Shown here one piece after another: positions 4,552-55,687 of a DNA stretch of 64,000 nucleotides; position 1 is the first letter of the stretch, and every line of letters begins with the position of its first letter. The position numbers were made by a program, and so were the translations under genes. The DNA lies in NCBI GenBank assembly GCA_963844965.1, contig CAWJQC010000007.1:32001-96000 (forward strand). The letters run 5' to 3'. The stretch is from an uncultured bacterium (lineage in GTDB: Bacteria; Patescibacteriota; Minisyncoccia; UBA6257; 2-01-FULL-56-20). The notes under the pieces were generated by a model. That model was not told the origin of the DNA, made no database searches, and saw only the letters and a program-made list of their open reading frames with translations.

Positions 4552-4563
4552 GCGGGTCTTTTT
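4536..4563. terminator. Bidirectional hairpin terminator between avd and TR
   Basis: aaaaagacccg-tgtgag-cgggtcttttt perfect palindrome with A/T runs on both sides. Confidence 0.5.
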
Positions 4564-4575
4564 GTGAGATACGAT

Positions 4576-4681
4576 CTGAGGGCGGAACCCCAAGTTGTCG
4601 TTCCGTTCGGCAGGGTCATCCCAGTTCACGTTGGAGAGGCCACCGTTGTCTGAGTTGCCGCCATCGAGGCGCCTCGTGCCC
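4576..4681 (-). repeat. DGR template repeat (TR)
   Basis: Not in a full-length gene. In the sense (minus) orientation it encodes GTRRLDGGNSDNGGLSNVNWDDPAERNDNLGFRPQ, with AAC/GAC codons exactly where the three VRs differ. Every VR/TR mismatch I can see is at a TR adenine. Confidence 0.8.
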
Positions 4682-4920
4682 GGTCCCAAGCCCATCTGTG
4701 TCCCAAACCATCCAAGGCAGCGGCAATTCGCAGAAAGCGTCTTGCCTGTATAAATATGGAGCGGTATTCCTTTGTTTAAAGGAAATCCGCATAAGTTTGG
4801 AGCACGTCGTTTCTCTCGTTTGTTGGGCGAACCGACGATCCGTAGATCCGGCTACATTAGCCCGCATAAAAAATTTACACCGAAATGCCCAAAGGAGCAA
4901 CAGCCCAATCCCCAAAGTTC

Positions 4921-5799: not shown

Positions 5800-5888
5800 G
5801 GTGTCAAATGAATGGTCTTATTTGTTTATTGTTATAAAATTTTTTTTGAAAGCCTACCAAAGAAACAAGAGAACAATTGTCAAAGTTC

Positions 5889-6737
5889 CTACTCACGAGA
5901 GAAAACAACCTGAGGGCGGAACCCCAAGCTGCCGAGCCGCTCGGCAGGGTCATCCCAGTCCACGTGGGAGAGGCCACCGAGGCCTGAGCCGCCGCCATCG
6001 AGGCGCCTCGCGCCCTTTTGGTAAGAATCTTCAAACCATTCCCAGGTATTGGTATCGCCCCACTCGGGGTGATAGGCGTTGCCGATAACGTTCCATTCAA
6101 TCGCTCGCGGCAGGCGGAGACACTCTTCGGGCACGTCCATTGCCTCCGCTATGGCCTTTTTGACTTCGGGCTTATTCAGTTCGTCCCAGGAGATGTTGAA
6201 GCGGGAGCCTTTCGTCTCAAAGTCCGTAATAATCTTCTTTTTCCTCAAGTCCTCTAAGACGGGTCTGAGGACGTCGTCCTTATATATTTGCTTGCCGCTC
6301 TCGTACTTCGGCTTCCCGCGGGTGTCGACGAGAATCCAGGCGTCGGGGAGCTTAGCAGCATCGGCAGGGATTTCGTTCGCCTCTAAGCGGCCATAAAACC
6401 AATCTCCAGGTTTCTTTTTCCACCCCGGGAAAGCGGCATCCTTCCTCATCTCTTCCGGGGGAAGGTAGTGCAATTCAAAACCCATCTCTTTCCATTTTTC
6501 ATAACGCTCGGGGGTAACTTCATCGGGTAAGGGCGGGACTTCAACCTCATGACCGAAGAAAGTGCTGAGAGATTCTGTCTCGCGATCTACCAGTTCCCGG
6601 AATTCCGCTGATTCCGGCGTCATTCTCCCTTTCTCCTTCTCCGCCTCGCCCAGTGCTTTTTCCACCTTCTTCTGGACGGTGGTTTTGTACTGGTCGGGGT
6701 TGTACTCTTCATAGATTTTGTAGCCGGGGAAGGGCAT
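5889..6737 (-). CDS. DGR target protein, paralog 3
   Basis: 282 aa; same N-terminal and C-terminal architecture; middle segment divergent; C-terminal VR3. Confidence 0.7.
   Translation of the reverse strand: MPFPGYKIYEEYNPDQYKTTVQKKVEKALGEAEKEKGRMTPESAEFRELVDRETESLSTFFGHEVEVPPLPDEVTPERYEKWKEMGFELHYLPPEEMRKDAAFPGWKKKPGDWFYGRLEANEIPADAAKLPDAWILVDTRGKPKYESGKQIYKDDVLRPVLEDLRKKKIITDFETKGSRFNISWDELNKPEVKKAIAEAMDVPEECLRLPRAIEWNVIGNAYHPEWGDTNTWEWFEDSYQKGARRLDGGGSGLGGLSHVDWDDPAERLGSLGFRPQVVFSRE
5910..6015 (-). repeat. DGR variable region VR3
   Basis: Aligned to TR; substitutions only at TR adenines. Confidence 0.75.
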
Positions 6738-6742
6738 CGGAA

Positions 6743-8419
6743 TTATTCTTTACCTTGCCACGCACGTAGGGTCTTCGCCGCGAGTCCAGGCACCTTGAAA
6801 TCTTCCGGCTTGGTGTCTTTGAAGAATTTATTCGCCATAAAGACGCGGATCATGTTTTCCCTGTCTTTGCTCGCGCGTCCGCTGATTTCCGCCTTATGGA
6901 AGAACTCGCGGAGAACCACGTTTCCGAGCGGATCTTTGAAGCCGCCGGCCTTCCACGCCTTCATAATTTCAATCTGGTCCTTCAAGGTGATGACGAGTTC
7001 TCGAAACGCAAGGCGGTCGCTCTTTGACAAGCTTTCTTCCGCGCCCTCCCGCACCGAGAGCGTGAAATCTTCCTGAATTTTGCGGCAGGCGGCGGCAAAG
7101 CGCTTCAGCTCATCAACTTTTTGCCCTGCTTCCGCTTCGCTCCATTGAATGTTGCCGTGGCGGTCGGCGAGAACGGCGGTCAAAATCTGCAACGTTTCCG
7201 GAGCGATATACTGCCCTTCTTTATTTTTCTTGCCGAGGTCCAAGTAATGTATTTCCCGCGCCCCTGCGCCTCCGATGAAGCGGCGAAGGGTCGCGACGTC
7301 CAGCTCATAGCGCTGCTTATATCGTTCTGATTTCAAGTTTGCCGTTGCCATAATCGGCGCGCGGATCGGAATTTCTTCCCCGGTCACCGGATGCTTCCAT
7401 GCGTCGCCGACGCGTTTCTGAAGAAGATCGTGCAAGATCCCCGCGAATTCGTGGGGCATAAGGTTGACTTCGTCCAAGATCACCGGGCGTCCTTCTTTTT
7501 GCGCCTTTACGAATTCGGAATAGTCAAAAACCGTCTCGCCCCCTTTGAGCCCTCGGCTCCCTATGATTTGTGATTCTTTGATTTGTTCTTGAATGGGGAT
7601 TAGGGCTGGGTCTCTCCTTAAGTATCTTTCGGAAATATATTTTGCAAGCTGCGACTTTCCGGAACCGGTTTCGCCCTGGAAAAGAACCGGCGCACCCTGC
7701 ATCAAATCCGGAAGTATGGCTCGGATCAATTCCGTACGCGATTCCGTTTCGGCGAAGCTGTAACGTTCGAGGTCGCGCTGCATGCGTCTGATTCCTCGCC
7801 GCTCCAACATATCAATCGTTTCGGGGTCCAATTCAAACTTCTGTAATCTTTCTTGAAGCTCAATCTTCCGAGCCGCCATGTTCGCCAATTTCTTGCGTTC
7901 AATCGGACCGGGCGCTCGCCCCACTTTCTCGAAAAGCATCTGGAGCTTTTCTTCGGCAGAAGTTATTGCGCCAAGTTCTTTCTCCGCATGTTCGTATTCT
8001 AACGCTTTTGCGAGCGTCTGTTTTTGTCTTTCAAATTTTTCTTTGTAAGCACGCAGCACTTCTGGATTGCTTGCTAATTCTTTTATACGAGCGTCGTATT
8101 CGTGAAGCGTGGTTTCCTGAAATTCCGCTAATTCTGGATCGAGCGAAAGAGCCTCAAGATGTGCGGCCATTTCTTTTTCGCCTTTGGCTTTGAGATCGGC
8201 GAGTTCCGTTTTGCTTTTCACGCCCCAGGCCTCATTCACATGTTTTGCGACCTCCGCGCGAGAAGCCGAAAACTCGGCGAGTTCGCTGACTCGCGATTCT
8301 AATTCTTCAGGCGACAGGGTTTTTTCTTTTTTCCCGGATTTTTGCGCGCCCTCCTTCTCAAGAACGATTTCGGGGGTAGTTTTTACCTCGGGAACATGTG
8401 GTATTTTTTCTGGGGACAT
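6743..8419 (-). CDS. AAA+ ATPase (AAA_5/MoxR-like) with N-terminal coiled-coil region
   Basis: 558 aa. Walker A GETGSGKS, Walker B VILDEVNL, ATANL sensor-like segment, arginine finger region RRF. Confidence 0.7.
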   Translation of the reverse strand: MSPEKIPHVPEVKTTPEIVLEKEGAQKSGKKEKTLSPEELESRVSELAEFSASRAEVAKHVNEAWGVKSKTELADLKAKGEKEMAAHLEALSLDPELAEFQETTLHEYDARIKELASNPEVLRAYKEKFERQKQTLAKALEYEHAEKELGAITSAEEKLQMLFEKVGRAPGPIERKKLANMAARKIELQERLQKFELDPETIDMLERRGIRRMQRDLERYSFAETESRTELIRAILPDLMQGAPVLFQGETGSGKSQLAKYISERYLRRDPALIPIQEQIKESQIIGSRGLKGGETVFDYSEFVKAQKEGRPVILDEVNLMPHEFAGILHDLLQKRVGDAWKHPVTGEEIPIRAPIMATANLKSERYKQRYELDVATLRRFIGGAGAREIHYLDLGKKNKEGQYIAPETLQILTAVLADRHGNIQWSEAEAGQKVDELKRFAAACRKIQEDFTLSVREGAEESLSKSDRLAFRELVITLKDQIEIMKAWKAGGFKDPLGNVVLREFFHKAEISGRASKDRENMIRVFMANKFFKDTKPEDFKVPGLAAKTLRAWQGKE

Positions 8420-8860
8420 ATTATTGCAATTATAGTAGCAAGGCCTTTATTTCTCAAGACTTTCGATTGTTTCCATGATACCATAATAATATAACTGCGT
8501 CAAGTCGCGCGTTTTCGTTCCCGAACGACCCCTGCTCTATCCTCAAAAACCTTGTCAGGGTCTAACTACGAAGGCCCCTTCGCAAGTCCTCTGATCTAAG
8601 TTAGGGTGGATGCAAAGGTCGAAAAATCGTATAATCTCATTAACAACTGAATAACCTCAAAGGCAGAGCCGTAACCCTCGCGAAAAATCGTGCGGCATGG
8701 CTCGAAATCCGTCCTCGGTAGAAAGCTCCTAGTCAGAGCACCGGGGACGGTCATATCTCGAAAGGGGTGTGGGTCCCGCAAGGGATCGCTGGCTGGGAGC
8801 TTTTTATTTCGGTCGATCTCTCGCTGGCACATTAGTAAATAATTAACAAAAAATAAAAAT

Positions 8861-9421
8861 ATGGAAGAGCAAACAAAGAAATGCAGGGAGTGCAAGTCGG
8901 ACATTCCGGCTGGCGCCAAGCGATGTCCCAGCTGCCGAGCGGATCAAAGGAACTGGTTGATGCGCCATAAAGCCTTAACTGTCGTGGTGATATTTATAGC
9001 GCTCATTATCATAGCCATGGTTGCTGGTAGTAATAGCAATAACCCTAAACAGGTCGGCAATAACAGCCAGCCAGTCCCATCATCCCAAGAGCAGACGTTC
9101 AAGGTCGGCGATCACGTCCAGATGGGAAGCGATATCATAACGGTGAACAGCGCGGAGTTTTCGAGCGGTACAGAATTCGCAAAGCCAGCCGCTGGGAACA
9201 CCTGGTTAGACGTCAATCTGACGATACAAAACACGGACAACGCCCAGCAGTATATAACGACCATGGGACAGATGTTTGTTAAGGATTCCGACGGCAACAG
9301 TTACAACGTTTCGCCCACGGACAAAGAATTACAAAATCCATCGCTTGGCATGGACGGCCCGATTCTTGCCAACAGCAAAAAGACCGCTTGGGTAGGGTTT
9401 GTAAAGGATAGGTTTCTTTAG
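8861..9421 (+). CDS. Zinc-ribbon / single-TM / DUF4352-like extracellular domain protein, 3' end running into the IS3 terminus
   Basis: N-terminal CxxC..CxxC, TM helix, then a beta-rich domain. The last codons (..VKDRFL*) are encoded by the IS terminal repeat, so the native C-terminus is probably lost. Confidence 0.55.
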   Translation: MEEQTKKCRECKSDIPAGAKRCPSCRADQRNWLMRHKALTVVVIFIALIIIAMVAGSNSNNPKQVGNNSQPVPSSQEQTFKVGDHVQMGSDIITVNSAEFSSGTEFAKPAAGNTWLDVNLTIQNTDNAQQYITTMGQMFVKDSDGNSYNVSPTDKELQNPSLGMDGPILANSKKTAWVGFVKDRFL

Positions 9422-9456
9422 ACAGTGATTCGACGGCTTTTTGCCGTTTTTTTTCG

Positions 9457-10239
9457 TTAAGCCGCAATCTTCTCGGCAAACACGGACGGCGGCATCTTGA
9501 GGGCGGAGTGGATCCGCGTGTGGTTGTACTGCCACAAGGTGCTGTAGATCTCCGCCACGAGCTCGCCGAAGGTCCCGAACCGGTTGGGATCACCGAGGTC
9601 AATCTTGAACTTGTCATAGAACGATTCCTGGTAGCCGTTTTCCCATGGGGCACCGGGCCGCGACCGCGAGATCGTGATGCCACAGTCCCCCAGTGTATCG
9701 GTGAACGCTCGTGCCTTGTACTCGCTGCCGTTGTCCGAATGGAAGATGACCGGATGCGGATGGTGGAAAAGCGCGTTGGCCAGGGTCTGTATCGTGAGGG
9801 GCGATCCTTTCCGCAACGCCACATGGACGCCCATCAATCGTCTCGTGAAAAGATCGAGTATCGTGGACACGTACACTTTCTTGCCGCGATACAGGAACTC
9901 CGTGAAATCGGTTGCCCAGACGTGGTTCGCGTACGAGGGCATGATGGCAAGTAAGAGGTTCGGAAAGGCCCGCGATGCCTTTGATTTCCGGTATTTCCTG
10001 CCTCGCCTCCGGTACGGCCTTATGCCGAAGATTCGCATGACGCGCTGCGCTCGCGGACGGCTCACGCCCAGAGCTTGTCCCAAGCGCCGGGAACCGTATG
10101 CCGGATGGCGCTGCAATTCTTCTTCCATGCGGATCTTGAGCGCCCAATCTTTCTTGTCCTGCCGTGATACGTAGTAGAGCGATGCCCGCGAGACGCCCAT
10201 GGCCCGCGCCATGGCGGACTTGTTCCGCTTTTCCGTCAA
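9457..10239 (-). CDS. IS3-family transposase OrfB (DDE integrase core)
   Basis: 260 aa; ..WATDFTEF..HSDNGSEY..YNHTRIHSAL.. rve-type DDE motifs. Confidence 0.85.
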   Translation of the reverse strand: MTEKRNKSAMARAMGVSRASLYYVSRQDKKDWALKIRMEEELQRHPAYGSRRLGQALGVSRPRAQRVMRIFGIRPYRRRGRKYRKSKASRAFPNLLLAIMPSYANHVWATDFTEFLYRGKKVYVSTILDLFTRRLMGVHVALRKGSPLTIQTLANALFHHPHPVIFHSDNGSEYKARAFTDTLGDCGITISRSRPGAPWENGYQESFYDKFKIDLGDPNRFGTFGELVAEIYSTLWQYNHTRIHSALKMPPSVFAEKIAA

Positions 10240-10499
10240 TTCTTTTTTTGGGCCTGGGAGAGCTTCACGGTGAGCTCGCCCACCACTTCAAACAGCTCCC
10301 TGTTCTGCTTCTGGAGACGGCTGAACTCGCCCCAGGAAGGGACGCCCGATGCTCCTGCGCCTAGCCAATTGTAGATGGTGGACTCGTGCAAACCGTGGTC
10401 CTTCGCAGCCTGCGCTACGGGGACTCCTTCTTCCTTCACCCGGCGGAGGATGTCCGCCTTCACTTCCTTCGCAATCCGATGCCCTTTTTTGTTGCTCAT
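10236..10499 (-). CDS. IS3-family transposase OrfA (HTH)
   Basis: 87 aa; helix-turn-helix; ends QAQKKN* at the frameshift heptamer. Confidence 0.85.
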   Translation of the reverse strand: MSNKKGHRIAKEVKADILRRVKEEGVPVAQAAKDHGLHESTIYNWLGAGASGVPSWGEFSRLQKQNRELFEVVGELTVKLSQAQKKN

Positions 10500-13827: not shown

Positions 13828-14091
13828 ATGAGCAACAAAAAAGGGCATCGGATTGCGAAGGAAGTGAAGGCGGACATCCTCCGCCGGGTGAAGGAAGAAG
13901 GAGTCCCCGTAGCGCAGGCTGCGAAGGACCACGGTTTGCACGAGTCCACCATCTACAATTGGCTAGGCGCAGGAGCATCGGGCGTCCCTTCCTGGGGCGA
14001 GTTCAGCCGTCTCCAGAAGCAGAACAGGGAGCTGTTTGAAGTGGTGGGCGAGCTCACCGTGAAGCTCTCCCAGGCCCAAAAAAAGAATTGA
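13828..14091 (+). CDS. IS3 transposase OrfA
   Basis: Identical to the other copies. Confidence 0.85.
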   Translation: MSNKKGHRIAKEVKADILRRVKEEGVPVAQAAKDHGLHESTIYNWLGAGASGVPSWGEFSRLQKQNRELFEVVGELTVKLSQAQKKN

Positions 14092-14870
14092 CGGAAAAGC
14101 GGAACAAGTCCGCCATGGCGCGGGCCATGGGCGTCTCGCGGGCATCGCTCTACTACGTATCACGGCAGGACAAGAAAGATTGGGCGCTCAAGATCCGCAT
14201 GGAAGAAGAATTGCAGCGCCATCCGGCATACGGTTCCCGGCGCTTGGGACAAGCTCTGGGCGTGAGCCGTCCGCGAGCGCAGCGCGTCATGCGAATCTTC
14301 GGCATAAGGCCGTACCGGAGGCGAGGCAGGAAATACCGGAAATCAAAGGCATCGCGGGCCTTTCCGAACCTCTTACTTGCCATCATGCCCTCGTACGCGA
14401 ACCACGTCTGGGCAACCGATTTCACGGAGTTCCTGTATCGCGGCAAGAAAGTGTACGTGTCCACGATACTCGATCTTTTCACGAGACGATTGATGGGCGT
14501 CCATGTGGCGTTGCGGAAAGGATCGCCCCTCACGATACAGACCCTGGCCAACGCGCTTTTCCACCATCCGCATCCGGTCATCTTCCATTCGGACAACGGC
14601 AGCGAGTACAAGGCACGAGCGTTCACCGATACACTGGGGGACTGTGGCATCACGATCTCGCGGTCGCGGCCCGGTGCCCCATGGGAAAACGGCTACCAGG
14701 AATCGTTCTATGACAAGTTCAAGATTGACCTCGGTGATCCCAACCGGTTCGGGACCTTCGGCGAGCTCGTGGCGGAGATCTACAGCACCTTGTGGCAGTA
14801 CAACCACACGCGGATCCACTCCGCCCTCAAGATGCCGCCGTCCGTGTTTGCCGAGAAGATTGCGGCTTAA
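14088..14870 (+). CDS. IS3 transposase OrfB
   Basis: Identical to the other copies; -1 frame relative to orfA. Confidence 0.85.
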   Translation: MTEKRNKSAMARAMGVSRASLYYVSRQDKKDWALKIRMEEELQRHPAYGSRRLGQALGVSRPRAQRVMRIFGIRPYRRRGRKYRKSKASRAFPNLLLAIMPSYANHVWATDFTEFLYRGKKVYVSTILDLFTRRLMGVHVALRKGSPLTIQTLANALFHHPHPVIFHSDNGSEYKARAFTDTLGDCGITISRSRPGAPWENGYQESFYDKFKIDLGDPNRFGTFGELVAEIYSTLWQYNHTRIHSALKMPPSVFAEKIAA

Positions 14871-14929
14871 CGAAAAAAAACGGCAAAAAGCCGTCGAATC
14901 ACTGTCTAAAGAAACCTATCCTTTACAGG

Positions 14930-15675
14930 GCACGGAATATGGCGAAGGCGGTCATCTTGTCATCCCGACGCTTTCATCGCGGCCGCACCATCATCCACGC
15001 GAACTCGACCGAGCGGTCATTGGCCGCATCCTTGCACTTCGCAGCGAACGGGACCAATGCGCGGAGATCGTCCATCACCGGCTAGAAGAGGAAAAGATTG
15101 CCGTTAGCCTTTCGTCCGTGAAGCGTACACTCAAACGCCACGGTATCACGCGATATTCAAAATGGAAGAAGTGGCACCAGTATCTTCCGCGTCCCATGCC
15201 CACAAAGCCAGGCATATTGGTTGAGATCGATTCAATGCAAGAAGGTATTGCCATGGACCACCTCCATGCGTACGCCTTGATCGACGTATGTTCCCGTTGG
15301 GCGTGGGCATGGCCAGCCGCCCAGGTCTCAAGCCGCTTAAGCGCACGGTTCGTCCAGCAAGCGCAAGCGGCAGCTCCGTTTCCTTTCGTCACAATCCAAT
15401 CCGACCGTGGCGGGGAGTTTTCAAAATGGTTTACCAAGGTCATCGAGCATCAGGGATTTTCACATCGCCACTCGCGCGTACGGACGCCAACAGATAACAG
15501 CCATGTGGAACGGTTCATCCAAACGCTTCAGCGGGACTGTTTACGACGTATCCCTAACACTCTTGCCGCGTGGCGCAAGGAGATTCCCGATTTTCTTCAC
15601 TACTACAATACCGAACGGCCGCACATGGGACTTGATATGAAAACGCCCGTCGAGTGGTTAGAAGCTATTGATTAG
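14930..15675 (+). pseudogene. IS481-like DDE transposase (integrase core), 5' end disrupted or ambiguous
   Basis: ..HTH-like RELDRAVIGRILALRSE.., then DSMQEG..DHLHAYALIDV.., QSDRGGEF.., HYYNTERPHMGLDMKTP. No in-frame ATG after the IS3 right end; the only ATG (14939) is in another frame that closes at 15085. Confidence 0.5.
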
Positions 15676-15691: not shown

Positions 15692-16129
15692 CTAAAGCCC
15701 GCGGCTTGTGTTCGGCTCCTGTTCCCACTGGTTTCTGATATATTCTCTCATCGCTTTTTCGTTTTGACGGCCAACGGTTTCGGCAAAGTAACCATCCTGC
15801 CACAAGCTGTCTCCCCAGAGGAATTCTTCCAGCTCGGGAAATTCTTTTCTGACAGCCCTGGACGTACCGCCTTTGAGATAAAACACCGCTTTGGCAACCG
15901 TCAGGGTAGCAGGAATTTGAAGCAATAGATGGACATGGTCGGGCATTATCTGCGCTTCATGGATGAACCATTTATTCATCTTGGCGGCTTGAAAGAACAA
16001 TGTCTTGAGTCGCCCGACCATGTCCCCTCGCAGTATCGAGCGGCGGTACTTTGGGCAGAAAACAACGTGGTACAAACATCGCGTATAGCTGTGGTTGCTT
16101 GGCCAGAATCCAGAGGGCATTATCTTCAT
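15692..16129 (-). CDS. tnpA: IS200/IS605-family Y1 transposase TnpA
   Basis: 145 aa; HVHLLL (HuH), Y..IRNQ; the palindrome ccgcgggctaaagcccgcgg overlaps the 3' end. Confidence 0.8.
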   Translation of the reverse strand: MKIMPSGFWPSNHSYTRCLYHVVFCPKYRRSILRGDMVGRLKTLFFQAAKMNKWFIHEAQIMPDHVHLLLQIPATLTVAKAVFYLKGGTSRAVRKEFPELEEFLWGDSLWQDGYFAETVGRQNEKAMREYIRNQWEQEPNTSRGL

Positions 16130-18566: not shown

Positions 18567-20177
18567 ATGTCTGATACGCCCGGTTTCATAGGGGGAGCTA
18601 TGCGCAAGGGTCTTCTTGTTGCCCTATTGGCCTTCATTGTGCTCGCCGGTCTGACCATCTCGATCGGCTTGTATTATTATCGATTTATAAATCAGCAGCT
18701 TACTTTGAGCGTTTACAATCACCGGCTGGTTGTCGCGAGCCTGACCGCATCCGGAATCAAGTTGAAATTGGACCATCTTGAGGGGATCGCGATATCTTTC
18801 GCGGCGCAGGACGACATGCGCGCAGAAATTATTGGCGGCAGATGGGAAGACGCCATGGCTAAGGCCGAGGACCTCTCCAACAGCCCAGATTTTTATGATT
18901 ACTACATAGACAGAACCTTATTGGTGGACGCCTCGGGAGCCATAAGAGCTGCCTATCCGCTCCTTAGCGGAACCATGGGTTTGCCCAAGTCAAATTTTAA
19001 GGAGTGGAGCGTTCCCCTTGAGAACGGGCAGGCCGCGTATGTTTCCGATGTCTATGAAAGGTCCGTCTCCCCGCGGATTAATGTCGTTGACGTCGTCGCG
19101 CCGGTTGCGGCGCACTCCGTTATTTACGGCTTCGTCGTTCTGCAGGTGCCCATCAATGAATTTTCCGATTTCGGCCAGGATACCGACATCAGCTCCAACG
19201 GTTTTGCCTACATAGTTGACAGGAAGGGTCAGATTGTATATCACCCGAAATATTCTTCCGTCGGTCCCATTGTTGACTATTCGGAGGTGCCGGCTGTGCA
19301 AAAATTGCTCAGCGGCGAAACCGGAATCGGAATTTTATCCAATCCGATTGAGAGAACGGAGAGAGTGTCGGCTTACGAATTGGTGCCGACATACGGGTGG
19401 GGCGTTGTGTCCGTGGAGCCGACCGCGGACGCGTTTGAGGCGCGGAATAGCATTTTGCACCAGATTTTGCTGGCCATTTCGGTTTTATGCGCATCAGAGC
19501 TTTTCCTGGCGATTTTCATTTTTTGGCTGGTTACGAGGTCCGAGAGAAGCAAACCGAACGCGGGATACGCGAGACAATTTCCGAAGACGCCGCCGAGGGC
19601 CAGCGGAGGGTTCACGCTGATAGAACTTTTGGTCGTTATCGCCATTATCGCCGTTTTGTCCATAGTCGTCATCCTGACCCTTAATCCGACGGAACTTCTG
19701 CGCCAGGCGAGGGATTCCGACAGGATTTCGGATCTCTCCATAATAAAGAGCGCCATTTCTATTTATTTGGTAGACCTGCGCAATCCGATTATCGCTTCCT
19801 CTACGGAATACTGCTACGAATCGGTCTTGGCAGCGAACGTCACCACTACCTACAGCACTTGGTTTCCCTCAATCCCACTCGGCAATGCGACTACTTCTCC
19901 GCAAGCTACCTACAGAAATATTGACGGCACGGGCTGGATTCATGTGAACTTTACCCAAATCAGCGCCGGCACGCCCTTCGGCCAGCTTCCGATCGACCCC
20001 TTGAATAACGCACAGTATATGTATATGTATGTAGGCAGTTCCACGCAGTCCACATTCAAACTCGCTACGGATATGGAAAGTTCAAAGTACGGCAATGGCG
20101 GAGCAGCGGACGTTGAGTCAAAAGACGGCGGCACTGACCCGAATAAATACGAAGCCGGAAGCAATCTCAATTTGTAG
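18567..20177 (+). CDS. dCache-like sensor domain (two TM helices) fused in frame to a type IV pilin/pseudopilin module
   Basis: N-terminal TM, ~300-aa periplasmic domain with Cache-like YVSDVY..GFVVLQVP..IVDRKGQIVYHP, second TM, then GGFTLIELLVVIAIIAVLS prepilin class-III signal, then a pilin body homologous to the two downstream pilins. Confidence 0.6.
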   Translation: MSDTPGFIGGAMRKGLLVALLAFIVLAGLTISIGLYYYRFINQQLTLSVYNHRLVVASLTASGIKLKLDHLEGIAISFAAQDDMRAEIIGGRWEDAMAKAEDLSNSPDFYDYYIDRTLLVDASGAIRAAYPLLSGTMGLPKSNFKEWSVPLENGQAAYVSDVYERSVSPRINVVDVVAPVAAHSVIYGFVVLQVPINEFSDFGQDTDISSNGFAYIVDRKGQIVYHPKYSSVGPIVDYSEVPAVQKLLSGETGIGILSNPIERTERVSAYELVPTYGWGVVSVEPTADAFEARNSILHQILLAISVLCASELFLAIFIFWLVTRSERSKPNAGYARQFPKTPPRASGGFTLIELLVVIAIIAVLSIVVILTLNPTELLRQARDSDRISDLSIIKSAISIYLVDLRNPIIASSTEYCYESVLAANVTTTYSTWFPSIPLGNATTSPQATYRNIDGTGWIHVNFTQISAGTPFGQLPIDPLNNAQYMYMYVGSSTQSTFKLATDMESSKYGNGGAADVESKDGGTDPNKYEAGSNLNL

Positions 20178-20290
20178 ATATATTTGCAAATGTGTCTTCG
20201 CGCGCTACTTCCCGCACCTCCTCAGGACGGGTTTTCGGTTATCCACAGAGGCGGTTATGAAGACGTGAGCGGTTTGTTACAATTAAGATT

Positions 20291-20330
20291 GTTGGTATTA
20301 GCAAAACGAAAAAGGTCGATTTGACGCGAT
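20291..20330 (+). promoter_or_regulatory. Conserved upstream element of pilin paralogs (copy 1)
   Basis: gttggtatta.c.aaac.a.aaaggtcgatttgacgcgat, repeated at 21205-21244 at the same distance from the start codon. Confidence 0.35.
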
Positions 20331-20348
20331 GTTTAGTGTGAAATAAAC

Positions 20349-20954
20349 ATGTCAAAGAAAACCAATAAAGGTTTTACGCTCGTTGAGCTTCTGGTTGTTA
20401 TCGCCATTATCGCCGTAATGTCCATAGTCGTCATTTTGACCCTTAACCCGGCGGAACTTCTGCGCCAGTCAAGGGATTCCAACAGAATTTCGGATATGGC
20501 GACGCTTAAGAGCGCGATGTCGCTCTACCTCGCGGATGTGAACGCGCCGTACCTCGGGACAAGTACCTGGTGTTATCAGGATGTAAGCGCGGCAAACGCC
20601 GCTACCGCGGGCACGAGCTCGAATTCCTGCAATGCTACGTTCGGTAATAATCCCGCCACAAATGCCGTGAGCAATGTGGCTTCTCCGAGGAATGTGGACG
20701 GCACGGGCTGGATTCCGGTTAATTTCTCCAAAATCAGCTCCGGCGCTCCGTTCGGCCAGCTTCCGATTGACCCCCTGGACAATGATGCGTTGCACCTGTA
20801 TCTCTACAAGACATCGAGCACGCTTCTCACTTTCCACATTGCAGTAAAGATGGAAAGCGCGAAGTACAGCTATCCTTCAGCCACCAATATTGAGGGTACC
20901 GATGGCGGCACCTCGCTTACCGAGTATGAAGTTGGAAATAATTTGAGCTTGTAA
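20349..20954 (+). CDS. Type IV pilin / pseudopilin (class III signal peptide)
   Basis: MSKKTNKGFTLVELLVVIAIIAV; conserved C-terminal VDGTGWIPVNF..GQLPIDPLDND. Confidence 0.75.
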   Translation: MSKKTNKGFTLVELLVVIAIIAVMSIVVILTLNPAELLRQSRDSNRISDMATLKSAMSLYLADVNAPYLGTSTWCYQDVSAANAATAGTSSNSCNATFGNNPATNAVSNVASPRNVDGTGWIPVNFSKISSGAPFGQLPIDPLDNDALHLYLYKTSSTLLTFHIAVKMESAKYSYPSATNIEGTDGGTSLTEYEVGNNLSL

Positions 20955-20996
20955 CGTCTGCGGACGGCAAGCCAGTCCGATTCTTGGCTTAAGAAC

Positions 20997-21028
20997 GTGA
21001 GCGCTCCGACCAAAGTCGGAGCGCTCAC
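20997..21028. terminator. Hairpin terminator after the pilin gene
   Basis: gtgagcgctccgac-caaa-gtcggagcgctcac followed by a T-rich stretch. Confidence 0.5.
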
Positions 21029-21204
21029 GTTTCTGCGTTGCCAGAACATCGTTCCGACCGCGGAAATATGCGGCGGCTCGGTTTCTGAGGCCGGCTCCAT
21101 CTTTGCTTTCGTTGATTTGCGCGAGCGGTATGGCCATAAATTGGGCTTTTGGGTTATCCACAGAGCATTCTGCGGATAAGGGGGAGATTTGCTATAATGT
21201 ATTT

Positions 21205-21244
21205 GTTGGTATTAACCAAACAAGAAAGGTCGATTTGACGCGAT
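21205..21244 (+). promoter_or_regulatory. Conserved upstream element of pilin paralogs (copy 2)
   Basis: See 20291-20330. Confidence 0.35.
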
Positions 21245-21252
21245 ATTCACAC

Positions 21253-21888
21253 AAAACGAATATGTCAAAGAAAACCAGCAAAGGTTTTACACTTATTGAA
21301 CTTTTGGTCGTTATTGCCATTATCGCCGTCTTGTCCATAGTCGTCATCTTGACCCTTAACCCCGCGGAACTCCTGCGTCAGGCGAGGGATTCCAACAGAA
21401 TTTCGGATATGTCCGTGGCGAAGAGCGCGATTTCGCTCTACCTCGCGGACGTGAGCTCGAATATCTCTATCGGGAGCACAACACCGTTCGTATACTGCTA
21501 TGAGGATGTTTCTGCGGCAAATGCGACCACTAATGGCACTACTTCGGCGAGTTGCAAAAGTGGTGTGGCAGGCGCAGAAACGTTTGCGAGCGACATAAGC
21601 TCCTCTAGCAACGCGGTTACTCCCAGAAACGTTGACGGCACGGGCTGGATTCCGGTTAACTTCACTAAAATCAGCTCCGGCGCGCCAATCGGTCAGCTTC
21701 CGGTTGACCCGTTAGATAATGACGGCATGCACATGTACCTCTACAGAACGAGTTCAACCCTCGTTTTCAAGATGGCGACAAAGATGGAAAGCTCTAAGTA
21801 CAGCAAGGGCGGCGCAGGTGACGTTGAGTCAACCGATGGCGGCACTAATACTGGCATGTATGAATCGGGAACCAATTTGAGTTTGTAG
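21253..21888 (+). CDS. Type IV pilin / pseudopilin
   Basis: MSKKTSKGFTLIELLVVIAIIAV; the ORF track extends it upstream to 21103, but this Met gives the canonical short leader. Confidence 0.75.
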   Translation, partial: KTNMSKKTSKGFTLIELLVVIAIIAVLSIVVILTLNPAELLRQARDSNRISDMSVAKSAISLYLADVSSNISIGSTTPFVYCYEDVSAANATTNGTTSASCKSGVAGAETFASDISSSSNAVTPRNVDGTGWIPVNFTKISSGAPIGQLPVDPLDNDGMHMYLYRTSSTLVFKMATKMESSKYSKGGAGDVESTDGGTNTGMYESGTNLSL

Positions 21889-21933
21889 TATGTAGGCGTG
21901 TGAAAGTTTGTCCCGGCGGTTTGTCCCACAAGG

Positions 21934-21963
21934 GGAGCGCTCCGACTTTGGTCGGAGCGCTCC
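21934..21963. terminator. Hairpin terminator after the pilin gene
   Basis: ggagcgctccgac-tttg-gtcggagcgctcc + TTTGTGTTTTT; same stem as 20997-21028 in opposite orientation. Confidence 0.5.
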
Positions 21964-22160
21964 TTTGTGTTTTTGGCCGTGAAGCCGTATTTTGTTATGA
22001 TTAAGGAGTAATCGCCGATGATGCGAATCCTGGCCCATTTTCACCAAACCTCCAGCGAGGTAAACAGATAATACCGACGAGGATTCGCATTATTGAATGA
22101 AAATTCGCGTTATTAGCGAACACTCTTATGAGGACGCCCTTGCCGCCGCTACAACTTAAA

Positions 22161-23843
22161 AAGGCGCTTATGGCCGATAACCTGATCACGGCCGAGAGAT
22201 TTGACGAACTTCTCGGGGAAGCCGAGAGGAAAGACCAGAACATACTTGATGTTCTTGTTTCCGAGAAGATCGCGAGCTACGGGTTTTTGGGCGATATGGT
22301 GGCGAAGATCTTGGGAGTTGAACGTGTGGATTTCGCGGCGAAATCCACTGACAGGCAAACCGTGCAGATGCTTCCGGAAGACGTCGCGCGGCAGCGGCAG
22401 GTGATAGTCTTTGACCGCGAGCCGAACGGGACACTGGACGTAGCCATGACAGATCCTTCCGACCTGGAAACCATAGAATTTCTGACCCAGCGCTTTAAGG
22501 TGGAAATCAGGCCGTTTCTCGCCACGGCGGACGATTTGAACCGCGGCTTCGCGGTGTACGGCTATGAACTCGGCCAGGATTTCAAAAAATTGATTGAGGA
22601 AAATATCAAGGCCTCGCTTACGAGCCGCGCCGGAACAATAGAGGAAGCGGCGTCTCAATTGCCGATTGTCGGCATCGTGGACAACATCTTGTCCTACGCG
22701 ATGGCTTCCAGGGCGTCGGATATCCACATTGAAATATTTGAAGAGGCGACCCTCATCCGCTACAGGATTGACGGGATTTTATACGAGATCATGAGCATCG
22801 CCAAGGCGGTGCATCCGGCCATTGTCGCGAGAATTAAACTCCTCTCCGGCCTCAAAATTGACGAGCACGTGAAACCGCAGGACGGCCGTTTCCGCCACCA
22901 GATTGTCGGCGATATCATTGACGTCAGGGTTTCGGTGATGCCGACCTACTTCGGAGAGAAGGTGGAAATGAGATTATTGGAAGCCGCGCAGAAGCCGCTT
23001 TCGTTGGAAGAACTGGGGATCGAGCGGGAAACCGCGAAGATCATTTCTGACAATCTCGGCAACACTTTCGGAATGATACTTTCGTGCGGGCCGACCGGTT
23101 CGGGAAAAACGACCACGCTGTACGCTGTGATGAACATAATCAACAAGCCGCAGATTAACGTCGTGACGATTGAAGATCCGATTGAATATAACATGCGCTA
23201 TGTGAATCAGACGCAGATCAATCCGCAGGCGGGAATAACTTTTGCCTCCGGTCTCAGAGCGATACTCCGCCAGGACCCGAACGTTATCATGGTCGGCGAG
23301 ATCAGGGATTCGGAAACCGCGGAAATAGCCGTGCAAGCCGCGATCACAGGCCACCTTTTGTTGTCGTCTTTGCACACCAACGACGCGCTTACTGCCATCC
23401 CGCGCCTCTTTGACCTGAAGGTGCAGCCGTTTCTTGTATCTTCCGTCCTGAATTTGATAATTGCCCAGCGGCTGGTTAGAAGAATTTGCCAAAGTTGCGT
23501 GTGCTCCTATGACGCCGGTCCGGAGGTGGGTCGGATTATCGCCGAGCAGTTCAAAGAGTCCGGCATCTCCAAAGAGGTCATAAGAGTTCCCAAAACGTTG
23601 TATAGGGGCAAAGGTTGTGCCGCTTGCGGCATGACAGGATACAAGGGACGGCTGGGAATTTTTGAGATATTCGCCGTTGATGATAAAATTAGGAAGATTA
23701 TGAATGATTCAGACTTTGACTTTGACAAGCTCCGCGCGGCGGCGCGCGAGCGCGGCATGAGAACGATTTTTGAGGACGGTCTCGACAAAGCGGAATTGGC
23801 CATTACGACCCTGGAAGAGGTGTTGAGGGTGGTGCAGGAATAG
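22161..23843 (+). CDS. pilB: Type IV pilus assembly ATPase PilB/GspE family
   Basis: GPTGSGKTTTL Walker A, ..CQSCV..C..CG tetracysteine, GspE signature region. Confidence 0.9.
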   Translation, partial: KALMADNLITAERFDELLGEAERKDQNILDVLVSEKIASYGFLGDMVAKILGVERVDFAAKSTDRQTVQMLPEDVARQRQVIVFDREPNGTLDVAMTDPSDLETIEFLTQRFKVEIRPFLATADDLNRGFAVYGYELGQDFKKLIEENIKASLTSRAGTIEEAASQLPIVGIVDNILSYAMASRASDIHIEIFEEATLIRYRIDGILYEIMSIAKAVHPAIVARIKLLSGLKIDEHVKPQDGRFRHQIVGDIIDVRVSVMPTYFGEKVEMRLLEAAQKPLSLEELGIERETAKIISDNLGNTFGMILSCGPTGSGKTTTLYAVMNIINKPQINVVTIEDPIEYNMRYVNQTQINPQAGITFASGLRAILRQDPNVIMVGEIRDSETAEIAVQAAITGHLLLSSLHTNDALTAIPRLFDLKVQPFLVSSVLNLIIAQRLVRRICQSCVCSYDAGPEVGRIIAEQFKESGISKEVIRVPKTLYRGKGCAACGMTGYKGRLGIFEIFAVDDKIRKIMNDSDFDFDKLRAAARERGMRTIFEDGLDKAELAITTLEEVLRVVQE

Positions 23844-23980: not shown

Positions 23981-25190
23981 ATGCTCTATCGTTACGTCGC
24001 GGCGGATAAGGGGGGCAGGGTTCACGAGTCGCAATTGGATGCCGACAACTTGAATCAGGTTCTCCAGTACTTGGCCGGGCACGAACTCCAACCAATCTCG
24101 GTTAAGCCCCTCGGAGAAGCGCATGCGACCGCGTGGCACTTTTTTGGCAAGAAGATTTCCACGACGGACAAGGTTTTTTTAACTAAATACTTGGCCCTGA
24201 TGCTGCGGGTGGGGACCGATTTGCTGTCGGCCATTAATATTCTGATCCAGGACTTTGATAAGCCGGCGGTGAGAAATTTTCTTCTGGAAGTAAGGGATAA
24301 TCTGACCCGCGGCCGCCAGTTTTACACCGCGTTTGAGGCGCACGAAGACGTTTTTTCCCCGGCTCTCGTCAATATGATAAGGGCGGCGGAGGCTTCCGGG
24401 AATCTCCAGCAGACCATGGAGGATTTGAGCGTCAGTTTGGGTCGTGACGCCGAGCTCGGTGGGCGTATAAAGTCGGCGCTTATCTATCCGATAATCCTGC
24501 TTTCACTTTCTTCCGTGATCATAGTTTTTTATGGTGACCTACGCGCTGCCCAAGGTTGCCAAGGTTTTCACGGATAGTGGCATAAAACCGCCGATTTTTT
24601 CGCGAATTGTGTTTACGGTCGGCCTCTTTGTGGGAGATCATATAATTGTGATTTGCATTTTGCTTGTAGGCACGATAGTGGGCGTCATTTACGCTTATCT
24701 CAAAACCGTTATCGGGAGGCGCGTGATTAATCGCGTGCTTTTCGGTTTGCCCCTCATTAAGAAGATTTACAGCGAACTCGCGATTCAGCGGCTTGCCTCC
24801 ACGATGGGTTCGCTTATGAAGGCCGGCCTGCCGATTACAGAAAGCATTAAAGTCGCCGCAAGGACTGTCGGCCTTGACGAATACCGCTTTCAGCTGGAGC
24901 GCGTTGCCGATGGAATCACCAAGGGGCTTACACTTGGGGAGGCGTTCAAACGCGAGGTTGTTTTTCCCAAGACGGTGGTCAATTTGATTGCCATATCGGA
25001 GAAAGCCGGTCACCTTGAAGAAGTTTTGGCGACGCTCGCGGATTTTTACGCGTCTAGCGTTGATAACGGGATAAAGGCCATTGTGTCCCTGCTCGAGCCG
25101 GTTCTCTTGCTGACCATGGCCCTGTTTGTGGGAATATTAGCGGTTGCGATTATCGTGCCGATTTATCAGCTGACAAGCAACATCAGTTAA
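23981..25190 (+). CDS. pilC: PilC/GspF-family platform protein, interrupted by a frameshift at a T6 run (24525-24530)
   Basis: Two overlapping ORFs (23981-24577, 24531-25190) each carry one GspF domain; joining them at the T6 run restores a normal ~400-aa PilC. Confidence 0.7.
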
Positions 25191-25234: not shown

Positions 25235-25819
25235 TTGACGCGCTTAGGCCGAAAACATCACAGAGAAAGTTTGTTCCCGCATCGGGGCGGGGATTCACCC
25301 CCACGCCAGAAACGGGAAGTTTTGGGTATCCAATGTCCGCGGCCCGTCTCCCGTTCGGTGCGGGGGTTCACGATGATAGAGGCAATCGTTTGCATCGGTA
25401 TATTGGCAGTTATCGGGACGGCTACTATTCTTTCGCTTTTATCCAGGCGTAGCCAGACCGATCTCACCACTACGGCTCAGAAAATCGCGGCGCTGCTCCG
25501 TGAGGCGCAGAGTCGTTCGGCCGCCGTGGAAGGAGGCGTGGCTTGGGGCGTGTATTTCGCGAATCCGACGACCACGCAGCCGTTCTACGCCATCTTCAGC
25601 AATGTTTATGGGACGTCCACCGTGAAGGGTTTGTACCTGCTGCCCAATACGGTAAGTTTTTCCGCAGCAACGGTCACGTCCGGTTCTTCGACGCAAATTA
25701 TTTTCGGAAACGTTTCGGGCCTTCCCGCCGCTTCATTCAGTGTCGGCATATTTGTCACGTCTAATCCAAATCAGTCGTCAACCATAAGTGTCGCTACCTC
25801 GGGGTTGGTGAATTATTGA
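25235..25819 (+). CDS. Pseudopilin (prepilin-type N-terminus RGFTMIEAIV..), start ambiguous
   Basis: G|FTMIEA cleavage motif and hydrophobic helix; the ORF-track start gives an unusually long 44-aa leader; a GTG at 25358 is possible. Confidence 0.55.
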   Translation: MTRLGRKHHRESLFPHRGGDSPPRQKREVLGIQCPRPVSRSVRGFTMIEAIVCIGILAVIGTATILSLLSRRSQTDLTTTAQKIAALLREAQSRSAAVEGGVAWGVYFANPTTTQPFYAIFSNVYGTSTVKGLYLLPNTVSFSAATVTSGSSTQIIFGNVSGLPAASFSVGIFVTSNPNQSSTISVATSGLVNY

Positions 25820-25893
25820 AGGCGCGAAAGTCACAATCTCAGCAGGAGAACGCGGCTCCGATTTTTGGACCGACTTGATGTTATAATAAAAGC

Positions 25894-26550
25894 GTGGGGA
25901 ATTTTCTGCTTTCCATTTTCCGCCCTCTGCTATTTGCGAAGCGGGGGCAGTCATTGATTGAGATTCTGGTTGCCGCCTCTGTCGGCGCTGTTTTGATCAT
26001 GGCAGCCGCTTCTCTGATTGCTCCGGCATTGAGAATTAATACCGAAACAATTCAGGAACAGACGGCTGCCGCGCTGGCCAAGGGGCTTTTGGACAATGTG
26101 AGCGTTTGGGCGGACGGCAACTGGCACAATATTGCCAACCTTTCCACAAGTTCCGCGTATCATTATTATCTGAACGCTTCGGGCTCGCCATTTTCGTCTT
26201 CCGCCGGTGATGACAGCATCGTGGTGGCTACAACGACATATAAAAGGTTTTTTTATGTTGACGATGTTTGCCGCGACGGCGGCGGGAATATCGCCTCACC
26301 GCCATGCAGCGGCCCGCCCTATTACGATCCTTCCACGAAGAAGATCACCGTCGGCTACAGCTGGCCGAATGCCACGACGGCCACCATATCGGCCTATCTC
26401 ACGAGGAACTCCGATATGGTCTTTATGCAAACCGATTGGTCCGGCGGGCCTAACCAGGCGGGGCCGATTACAAACGCCAACTCACAGTTCGCTTCTTCAA
26501 CCCCGAATATTAATTATGCCTCGAGTGGGGCCATATATTTAAATCTGTAG
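25894..26550 (+). CDS. Pseudopilin-like protein
   Basis: ..RGQSLIEILVAASVGAVLIMAAASL prepilin-like N-terminus. Confidence 0.55.
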   Translation: MGNFLLSIFRPLLFAKRGQSLIEILVAASVGAVLIMAAASLIAPALRINTETIQEQTAAALAKGLLDNVSVWADGNWHNIANLSTSSAYHYYLNASGSPFSSSAGDDSIVVATTTYKRFFYVDDVCRDGGGNIASPPCSGPPYYDPSTKKITVGYSWPNATTATISAYLTRNSDMVFMQTDWSGGPNQAGPITNANSQFASSTPNINYASSGAIYLNL

Positions 26551-28040: not shown

Positions 28041-29554
28041 ATGGCAATAAATTTTAAATATTACGCAGGAAAAATATTGTCCGCTCTGAGGATTAAGACC
28101 TTCGTGGGCGGCTTGGAGGTTTCCGATTCGGTGATGCGCTTCGCGTATTTTGACGGAAGGACGTGGCGTTTGGCTGGCGTGCGCCTCGAACCGGGCATAA
28201 TCGATGGCGGCAAGATAAAAAACCGCGACGGTTTCATTTCGGCCCTGCAGGCGCTCAAGTCCCAGATTTTCAGCGGTCACGATTTAAAAAGAGGGCCAGC
28301 GTCATTGTTTCTTTGAGTTCCATCGGCATTTACAGCCAGGTATTCAGCTTGCCGATTATAGAGGGGGAAAATCTGGAGAAGGCCATCCAACTTAATGTTC
28401 AGATGGTTTCTCCGATTGAGGCCTCGCAGGCTTACTCCGGTTGGCAGAAGGTCGGCGAGGATAAGGCCTCTTTGCGCCTTGAAATTTTGAGCGCTTTCGT
28501 GGACAAATCGGTGATTGACGAACTTAATCAGGCGCTTTTTGACGGCGGCTTTGTCGCCGCAGCGGTTGATTCGCGGGCGTTGTCTCTCGCTCGTCTTTTC
28601 CGGGAGGAAGGGATTGGTTTTGACGAGAACAAGTCCTACGTGCTTCTGAGCATTGACAGTTCCGGCATGGATTTTTTGATAATCAGGCGTAGCCAACTTT
28701 ATTTTGAATATTTTAGCCCCTGGCGCGAGGCCGCGGACGAGAAAGGCGAAATACAAATCTCTTCATTCAATGCCGCAATCACACGCAATCTTCACCGCGT
28801 TATGAATTTTTACAGTCAGCACTGGCCGGAACCCCTGGAGGGCGTTATACTTTCCGCGACCGCGCTGGTTGACGAGACGAAGAAGGTCGTTGCCGAAAAT
28901 TTCTCGCTCCCGGTGAGGGAATTGCGGCTAAGCATGGACCAATCAATAGGTCCGGAATGGTTCGTCGCCCTGGGGTGTGGACTGCGGGGTGTGAAGCCGA
29001 GGGGCGCCGATAAAGAAGTGAGTTTGCTGGGGATCGGCGCCGCAGAGGAGTTTTATCGCGAACAGCTGATTGGATTCATGAGTTTTTGGCGCTTGCTTGT
29101 GCCACTCGTGCTCGGTTTACTTGTTGTATCGTTTTTCTTGTCGGATTTATTCCTGATTCAGACGCGTCATTCTCTCGAGGCGCGAGCGCTGCCCACTTTT
29201 TCAGGCGAGCAAACAAAAGAGTATTCTACGCTCGCGGCGCAAGCCGATGACTTCAACCGCTCAGTTAAGCTGATTGAGAGTGTCCAGAGTTCACTTTTTT
29301 CGGATGGTAAGCTTTGGGATAAAATTTCTGGAATTATGGCTACCGCCGGGGTAAAACCAGACCACCTTTCTTTCCAGGGCATTAATTCGCCGGTTGCTTT
29401 GAGCGGTACCGCCAAATCAGAGGATCAGGTTATGGCCTTCAAATCCGCATTGGCGAACGATCCAGAATTCGGCGGGGTTAATTTGCCGATTTCAAACATT
29501 GAAACCAACCCCGAAGGAGTTTCTTTTTCCCTTACCTTTAACATAAATCACTAA
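28041..29554 (+). CDS. pilM: PilM-like actin-fold ATPase fused to PilN-like TM protein; N-terminal part frameshifted at an A5 run (28286-28290)
   Basis: 28041-28316 encodes the PilM N-terminus and 28163-29554 the rest plus a TM and a PilN-like tail; the frames meet at gatttAAAAAgag. Confidence 0.65.
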
Positions 29555-54539: not shown

Positions 54540-54644
54540 TCCAAGTTTTACATTTTGAGGGAGATGGAGCGGTTGGAAATATCTAAATGTAAAGGATAGG
54601 TTTCTTTAGACAGTGATTCGACGGCTTTTTGCCGTTTTTTTTCG

Positions 54645-55427: not shown

Positions 55428-55687
55428 TTCTTTTTTTGGGCCTGGGAGAGCTTCACGGTGAGCTCGCCCACCACTTCAAACAGCTCCCTGTTCTGCTTCT
55501 GGAGACGGCTGAACTCGCCCCAGGAAGGGACGCCCGATGCTCCTGCGCCTAGCCAATTGTAGATGGTGGACTCGTGCAAACCGTGGTCCTTCGCAGCCTG
55601 CGCTACGGGGACTCCTTCTTCCTTCACCCGGCGGAGGATGTCCGCCTTCACTTCCTTCGCAATCCGATGCCCTTTTTTGTTGCTCAT
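55424..55687 (-). CDS. IS3 transposase OrfA
   Basis: Identical to the other copies. Confidence 0.85.
   Translation of the reverse strand: MSNKKGHRIAKEVKADILRRVKEEGVPVAQAAKDHGLHESTIYNWLGAGASGVPSWGEFSRLQKQNRELFEVVGELTVKLSQAQKKN

Follow-up and report, generated by a model that had tools for sequence, protein, structure and literature searches.

How does the cleavage signal of a type IV pilin come to lie 348 residues into a membrane protein? The question is raised by one unbroken open reading frame (ORF) of 536 codons (536 amino acids, aa) at positions 18567 to 20177 of the forward strand of a 64-kb stretch of DNA from an uncultured bacterium of the Patescibacteriota (64,000 nucleotides, nt, of contig CAWJQC010000007.1; hereafter the window). 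An earlier, sequence-only reading of the window had described this ORF as an in-frame fusion of a Cache-like domain of about 300 aa, lying between two transmembrane (TM) helices, to a pilin with a prepilin motif near residue 350, and had offered an unrecognised internal start, a gene fusion or a true sensor-pilin chimera as explanations. Our analysis indicates that the ORF is almost certainly a real, conserved fusion of a gene pair. We also think it probable, from comparison of related sequences, that a prepilin peptidase cuts the product at G348/F349 into a two-TM Cache protein and a normal pilin.

From its N-terminus the protein consists of a first TM helix (TM1), an extracytoplasmic double-Cache (dCache) domain, a second TM helix (TM2), a basic linker of 26 aa, a complete prepilin site (G348/FTLIELLVVIAIIAV) and a pilin body (Table 1). 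Its orthologues begin just before TM1, and M12 (position 18600) may be the true start. The Pfam family dCache_1 matches residues 111–283 with an E-value of 5.9e-11 and a score of 42.8 bits, slightly below the 45 bits of the gathering cut-off; we nevertheless assign the domain to dCache because the family profile, the Pfam matches of the orthologues and a fold search agree. The family profile matches Protein Data Bank (PDB) sequences of chemoreceptor ligand-binding domains, and precomputed PF02743 matches are present in all orthologues. An AlphaFold2 (AF2) model based on the family alignment is confident over residues 10–327 (predicted local distance difference test, pLDDT, of about 90) and has TM1 running into a long helix (residues 10–79), two alpha/beta modules and a long TM2 helix. 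This is the dCache fold, with its long N-terminal helix and two PAS-like alpha/beta modules, flanked here by the two TM helices that hydropathy also predicts. Foldseek places the N-terminal part close to the dCache ligand-binding domains of PscC, CtaA, PctA, Mlp24, DctB and KinD (E-values of 1e-9 to 1e-10, TM-scores on the target of 0.6–0.77).

The remainder of the protein has the features of a type IV pilin. Pfam N_methyl matches residues 344–368 (29.7 bits, cut-off 21.2), and the NCBIfam model TIGR02532 (IV_pilin_GFxxxE) scores 24.2 bits against a cut-off of 16.3. The prepilin motif GFTLIELLVVIAIIAV begins at G348/F349, and Gly(-1) is followed by about 21 hydrophobic residues with a Glu at +5 (G348/FTLIELLVVIAIIAVLSIVVILTL), which hydropathy resolves as the pilin helix alpha1N (residues 349–372). 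The pilin has the lollipop fold, in which a long N-terminal alpha1 helix packs on a beta-sheet head. The protein is unusual in what precedes the site: 348 residues, with two TM helices and a dCache domain, only the last 26 or so of which resemble a leader. No domain other than N_methyl was found after TM2 in Pfam or NCBIfam. The fused protein therefore lacks one defining feature of pilins, the short N-terminal leader, and one of Cache transducers, the transmitter domain, while its other sequence and fold features point to both families.

Searching 5.8 billion proteins for homologues returned 13 full-length fused orthologues (512–530 aa, 39–47% identity, 93–98% coverage), all with dCache_1 and N_methyl, and two further fused orthologues that are partial. 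They come from independent JGI, ENA, NCBI and Logan metagenome assemblies, and for three (L006, L007 and L009) the DNA confirmed a continuous frame. The names of such sequences in databases are generic ('prepilin-type N-terminal cleavage/methylation domain-containing protein', 'cache domain-containing protein'). The feature is homologous to real pilins and is kept in orthologues, which is far beyond chance. The search for homologous fusions in relatives, proposed in the sequence-only reading, thus bore out the fused architecture, with its Cache-like domain between two TM helices and its internal prepilin motif.

The ORF could in principle be an artefact or a mis-annotation, either because an assembly or sequencing indel joined two genes or because the pilin is translated from an internal start, in which case the products would be a Cache protein and a prepilin of the usual kind. 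In the nearest relative (P0011, 58% identity) the halves are indeed split, and two other genes of the window, pilC (at a T-run) and a P-type ATPase gene, carry frame changes that make indel errors or decay plausible in this assembly. An indel, however, could join two frames yet would leave the pilin's own start codon in place, so that an assembly error cannot hide a separate pilin gene. In the window the pilin frame offers no ATG, GTG or TTG over the 46 codons that precede G348, and neither of the other two frames contains a leader initiated by Met. When the DNA was aligned with the promoter and leader region of the two downstream pilin genes in search of a relic start, likeness began only at about the G(-1) codon. 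The linker also has the basic, leader-like make-up seen in the 13 independent fused orthologues, most of which have no Met there; the exceptions are P0005 and P0018, with a Met about 12 residues before G(-1) that is possibly a relic. An internal start was therefore rejected as a general explanation, and we regard any version of the artefact account as very improbable. Of the explanations offered for this locus, the one that stands is a gene fusion, the in-frame joining of a conserved Cache gene and the pilin gene that is always adjacent to it.

That adjacency is seen in lineages where the two halves are separate genes. The same protein search and alignment (A1) contain Cache-only proteins of about 338 aa that end 8–13 residues after TM2. 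In all eight independent Cache-only lineages with readable DNA a pilin gene follows directly, has an ATG of its own and a leader of 5–14 aa, and lies at -23 to +12 nt from the Cache gene (negative values are overlaps, positive values spacings); several of these lineages were found in more than one sample. The sequence-only reading had anticipated that a stop codon or frameshift between the halves in orthologues would speak against a fusion. The halves are separate in some lineages and continuous in others, and this mixture is itself informative.

Neighbour-joining trees were built for the Cache parts and for the pilin parts; their topologies largely agree, with fused and split members intermingled. 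The window protein (P0001) is sister to the split P0011, the fused P0002 to the split L011, and the fused P0004 to the split P0019, and one clade of seven diverged members is wholly fused. These sequence trees imply that the state switched at least three times, by fusion or by fission. The congruence of the trees, together with the strict adjacency, indicates that the pair is inherited as a unit, and the persistence of the fused state through long divergence indicates that it is functional and under selection. The Cache-pilin pair is thus a conserved partnership of Patescibacteria, in genomes of the candidate phyla radiation (CPR) type; the names given to relatives suggest Parcubacteria/Paceibacterota.

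We considered whether the split forms might yield fused products by programmed frameshifting or transcriptional slippage, and rejected this. The eight junctions differ (-23 nt in L004/L005, -20 nt in L001–L003, -8 nt in L011/L012, which are Parcubacteria genomes, -8 nt in L022/L023, -4 nt in L020, +2 nt in L010, +10 nt in L021 and +12 nt in L024, where the genes are in frame with a single TAA between them) and include all three relative frames. No slippery motif is common to them, and the A-runs at L001 (A6) and L004 (A8) are Lys codons of the basic tail or leader. Two further observations concern the split loci. The pilin partner in L021 (positions 1458–2135) begins with MKKGFTLIDPGRSSSPRRRGPDDIANQSKTKDG/FTLIELL, a degenerate prepilin motif with the real motif about 30 residues on, as if the leader region had been duplicated. 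A 571-aa gene after the L010 pair, considered as PilB for its length, proved unrelated by BLASTP. Separately, about 65 CPR-type proteins (P0021–P0088; about 400–480 aa) share the pilin body at about 40–48% identity and carry C-terminal LamG (PF13385) or FGE-sulfatase (PF03781) modules, so that one pilin scaffold serves both C-terminal display modules and the N-terminal Cache fusion.

Comparison of fused and split forms also bears on the fate of the fused product. In the split orthologues, the counterpart of the linker (T323–G348) is the tail of the Cache protein together with the leader of the prepilin. Among family members the linker varies in sequence and length, with a stretch from TM2 to G(-1) of about 13–24 aa in most members and up to about 35 aa in P0018 (read from the alignment), which is about the length of the tails and leaders of the split forms combined. 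Its equivalents are net positive in every family member (3–11 Lys and Arg versus 0–5 Asp and Glu over the scored segments). Under the positive-inside rule a basic linker is expected to be cytoplasmic, so that the Gly/Phe site would face the cytoplasm, with the pilin head outside. Prepilin peptidases need the cleavage site at the cytoplasmic face, as is predicted here (PMC4471445; PMC10191384).

The site itself is strictly conserved. G(-1), F+1 and E+5 are invariant in 15 of 15 fused proteins and in 10 of 10 free pilins of the family, and positions +1 to +10 of the fused proteins (FTLIELLVVI) are identical to those of the free pilins, while positions -6 to -2 vary among the 15 fused proteins. 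We infer cleavage because G(-1) is invariant beside variable residues and because repeated switching between fused and split states is simplest if both yield the same products. To our knowledge, recognition by the peptidase is the only established role of G(-1). In the mechanism we propose, the fused product would insert with three membrane helices, its N-terminus inside, the Cache domain outside, the linker inside and the pilin head outside, with the fully conserved class III signal-peptide site facing the cytoplasm. Prepilin peptidase would then cut at G348/F349. The 348-residue Cache portion would act as a giant 'leader' and remain in the membrane as a separate protein, and the 188-aa pilin starting with Phe would be freed for assembly by the adjacent PilB/PilC machinery. 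Cleavage would thereby yield the same pair of polypeptides as the two separate genes of the split orthologues.

An alternative is that the protein stays uncleaved, as an intact three-TM receptor with the tethered pilin as its output, in which ligand binding would reposition the pilin helix or head to dock with, prime or block PilC/PilB. Such a protein would be a pseudo-pilin regulator anchored in the membrane, near to the 'ligand-gated pilin' raised in the sequence-only reading. Where relatives carry kinase or GGDEF domains, this protein has no cytoplasmic transmitter, and in the all-fused clade the fusion has been retained through long divergence. The site would be enclosed by two TM helices that form a hairpin, a setting in which no peptidase substrate is known, and no peptidase gene was found in the window. 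On the other hand, G(-1), with no established role known to us other than peptidase recognition, is invariant in 15 of 15 fused proteins beside variable residues, and the closest relatives make separate proteins, the pilin with a normal cleavable leader, so that a covalent tether is not essential. Repeated switching would also be easiest if both states gave the same products. We therefore consider an uncleaved receptor unlikely. For the proposal of a sensor-pilin chimera the evidence points both ways: the fusion is real and, as the all-fused clade of seven attests, selected, whereas the split orthologues and the invariant G(-1) argue for separate polypeptides and against an obligate chimera.

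If two polypeptides are made, what does the Cache protein do? At an E-value of 1e-30 or below its Cache module belongs to a clade of 368 representatives. All 72 longer members of this clade match dCache_1 at an E-value of 1e-5 or below; 56 of them are histidine kinases and six are GGDEF proteins. The nearest relatives in sequence are mostly Patescibacteria histidine kinases, with GGDEF proteins also among them, and a conserved core (IDR, W147, Y163/R165 and HPK) is common to the Cache-pilin family and these kinase relatives. The label 'sensor' is given to the Cache protein by homology. A Patescibacteria locus (L014, positions 3977–8618) encodes, one after the other, an 829-aa relative from the Cache clade, a 133-aa response-regulator-like protein and a PilB that is 39% identical to the PilB of the window; taking the 829-aa protein as a kinase from the trend of its clade, this arrangement hints that the clade may be tied to pilus control more generally.

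The obligatory linkage of the two genes points to the Cache protein as a partner dedicated to its pilin. Membrane pilin is a known signal for the sensor kinases PilS and PleC, by intramembrane contact (PMC6058289; PMC7196804). By analogy, the Cache protein might hold or sense membrane pilin and so tie pilin availability to an extracellular ligand, a tentative proposal under which Cache-pilin coupling would take the place of the kinase output usual for this Cache clade. An acidic residue in the middle of TM2, E311 (19494–19496), could be a contact for the pilin alpha1N or for its N-terminal amine; the position is Asp or Glu in 15 of 20 family members, Asn in two and Ala in two (alignment A1). 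Carried further, and held with still less confidence, the idea is that a dCache sensor swapped its kinase output for a pilin, so that ligand sensing would set the supply or release of one specific pilin. This would be the first case of peptidase processing at an internal site of a polytopic protein, with a 348-residue, two-TM leader surviving as a functional protein, and pilus composition could then switch on a host cue in these episymbiotic, ultra-small bacteria.

A serious rival is that the Cache protein does not sense at all. As a membrane chaperone or docking factor it would bind the pilin head or alpha1N, either within the membrane or outside it, and block premature polymerisation, a sensor fold having been recruited for this purpose, and fusion would ensure 1:1 synthesis and co-insertion before cleavage. 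Strict adjacency and congruent trees suggest a physical interaction, the acidic residue in TM2 is conserved, and the Cache protein ends in a tail of only 8–13 aa that carries no output domain. The Arg preceding W147, which we take to be part of the amino-acid-binding dCache motif, is not conserved in the family either. Set against these points are the retention of core positions of the kinase-linked relatives (IDR, W147 and HPK) and of the full dCache fold with its distal module, and we know of no pilin chaperone with a dCache fold. Overall, a chaperone that does not sense appears rather improbable.

The whole chain, from a conserved fused cassette through cleavage to a dedicated partner role, is one that we hold with moderate confidence, and several observations weigh against it. 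The AF2 model gives no confident structure for the linker or for the packing of TM2 against alpha1N, and the peptidase might have difficulty in reaching a site within the TM2-loop-alpha1N hairpin. The Cache protein contains no recognisable output domain, and the Arg before W147 is not conserved, so that its description as a sensor comes from homology. Peptidase_A24 was found neither among 44 ORFs of the window scanned with Pfam nor in a crude six-frame scan for the motif GxGDxK, so the peptidase, if it exists, is encoded elsewhere in the genome. Most Cache-pilin pairs sit away from pilus gene clusters. The two genes split by frame changes leave the base-level accuracy of the assembly uncertain. 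Finally, described prepilin leaders are hydrophilic and 6–26 aa long, in agreement with the statement of the sequence-only reading that they are normally under 30 aa, and no known bacterial prepilin leader is longer than about 30 aa or contains TM helices (PMC4471445).

Table 1. Features of the fused ORF, the neighbouring pilus genes and the insertion sequence copies, in window coordinates.
Feature	Position	Strand	Basis
Fused ORF, dCache membrane protein and type IV pilin precursor	18567..20177	+	frame, Pfam, protein search, alignment
TM1 (about G15-Y37) after a basic N-terminus (R13, K14); N-terminus predicted inside	18609..18677	+	hydropathy, AF2
Extracytoplasmic double-Cache domain (dCache_1-like), about residues 38-299	18678..19463	+	Pfam, AF2, Foldseek, PDB sequence matches
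TM2 (I300-V322)	19464..19532	+	hydropathy, AF2, alignment
Predicted cytoplasmic basic linker T323-G348 (TRSERSKPNAGYARQFPKTPPRASGG), ending in the invariant G(-1)	19533..19610	+	hydropathy, alignment, start scan
Predicted prepilin-peptidase site G348/F349	19608..19613	+	G(-1), F+1 and E+5 invariant
Mature pilin, 188 aa: alpha1N FTLIELLVVIAIIAVLSIVVILTL, alpha1C, beta-sheet head	19611..20174	+	sequence
Pilin 2, leader MSKKTNKG/FTLVELL	20349..20954	+	57% identical to fused pilin half
Pilin 3, leader MSKKTSKG/FTLIELL	21265..21888	+	62% identical to fused pilin half
PilB-type assembly ATPase (T2SSE and MshEN)	22128..23843	+	Pfam
PilC platform protein, two overlapping ORFs, 23981-24577 (198 aa) and 24531-25190 (219 aa), one T2SSF each	23981..25190	+	Pfam
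Two pilin-like genes with N_methyl motifs, likely minor pilins	25235..26550	+	Pfam
463-aa protein, weak C-terminal PilN match (21.9 bits, cut-off 22.8), possible alignment-complex component	28163..29554	+	Pfam
Insertion sequence, copy 1	9400-10426	-	
Insertion sequence, copy 2	13901-14927	+	
Insertion sequence, copy 3	54588-55614	-	
Insertion sequence, copy 4	58761-59787	+	

The fused gene lies upstream of two free pilin genes and a set of pilus genes (Table 1). The pilin body is triplicated in tandem (repeat families D1-D4 and D6), consistent with the observation in the sequence-only reading that the two downstream pilins share the C-terminal body of the fused protein. The pilin half of the window protein groups with pilins 2 and 3 in both trees, so the free copies either arose in this lineage or were homogenised with the fused copy. 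Pilins 2 and 3 each look like a self-contained transcription unit: a 45-nt upstream element is common to them (20289–20333 and 21203–21247), and each is followed by a GC-rich hairpin (20994–21026 and 21930–21966), that of pilin 3 being scored as a 16-bp terminator-like stem. The fused gene has neither the element nor the hairpin. The frame change in pilC falls at a T-run (GTTTTTTATG, junction at about 24519–24545) and might stem from a sequencing error in the homopolymer, mark a true pseudogene or be subject to phase variation; if it is real, the adjacent pilus machinery may be impaired.

The second apparent frameshift in the window splits a P-type cation ATPase into two overlapping ORFs (48691–51208), one with the N-terminal half and the E1-E2 domain and the other with the Hydrolase domain and the C-terminal half; its junction (about 49840–49881) contains no long homopolymer. 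The window also holds four copies, 100% identical, of an insertion sequence of at least 1027 nt that encodes a 260-aa rve-type integrase. One of them is found some 3.6 kb upstream of the fused ORF, beside an rve-like ORF (14503–15675) and an IS200-type Y1 transposase (15692–16129, reverse strand). A full-length match to the Rfam LOOT RNA (RF03000) was found at 8667–8787 on the forward strand (83 bits, gathering score 46.4), and a 358-aa reverse-transcriptase ORF (RVT_1; 3202–4278, reverse strand) may belong to a group II intron, a retron or an element of the diversity-generating retroelement (DGR) type.

Nearly all Patescibacteria possess type IV pili, which drive their attachment to host cells, and pilus regulation in such reduced organisms is an open question (PMC11623550). 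A linked and repeatedly fused Cache-pilin pair is a candidate link between an external signal and the composition of the pilus, with no two-component pathway in between. Should the product be cleaved, prepilin peptidases can act on internal sites of polytopic proteins, and surveys based on N-terminal motifs, such as PilFind-type searches and the modular-pilin census, would systematically miss such proteins; if it is not cleaved, a pilin module serves as the output domain of a receptor, which would be equally new. Searches of the openly searchable literature (subscription-only papers excluded) on Cache or dCache domains combined with a pilin or prepilin, on long or internal prepilin leaders and on non-pilin peptidase substrates yielded no prior account of this architecture, and Cache proteins go unmentioned in a recent study on the pili of Saccharibacteria.

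Among known systems, the closest counterparts of the C-terminal half are the type IV pilins PilA, PilE and PulG, including the type IVa pili (T4aP) of monoderms and Patescibacteria. The fused protein shares with them the G/FTLIELL site with Glu5, an alpha1N of about 21 residues, the lollipop fold and the N_methyl and TIGR02532 matches, and it has paralogues with normal leaders and PilB, PilC and minor pilins next to it. It differs in that the signal peptide is internal, at residue 348, behind a 'leader' of 348 aa with two TM helices and a folded domain, as opposed to 6–26 aa (PMC4471445). Modular pilins (PilB and PilC of S. sanguinis, CofB and the CPR pilin-LamG proteins) likewise join a pilin module to a functional domain that is not a pilin. 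Their extra module, however, is grafted C-terminally through a short linker and displayed on the filament, and the published census (Raynaud et al. 2021) demanded an N-terminal IPR012902 motif (PMC8179133), whereas here the module is N-terminal to the site and membrane-anchored, and would be removed from the pilus.

For the N-terminal half, the counterparts are dCache_1 chemoreceptors, kinases and diguanylate cyclases such as PctA, Mlp24, DctB and KinD, which have the same fold and TM-dCache-TM topology. In the Cache-pilin family, by contrast, HAMP, HisKA, MCP and GGDEF domains are all absent, and what comes after TM2 is either a short basic tail or a pilin. PilS-PilA of P. aeruginosa, PleC-PilA of C. 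crescentus and FimS with minor pilins resemble the pair in coupling a polytopic sensor to a membrane pilin, presumably within the membrane. There the sensor is a kinase that monitors the amount of pilin and is neither fused nor strictly adjacent to the pilin gene, whereas the present protein contains no kinase and its interaction with the pilin is a suggestion from linkage. The split pilin of Geobacter (PilA-N/PilA-C) offers a parallel for fission or fusion of a pilin gene with an adjacent partner, although that split separates the stick of the pilin from its head, whereas here the partner is an unrelated protein with a sensor fold, upstream of the signal peptide. The Cache-pilin fusion combines two known kinds of protein and is a plain member of neither.

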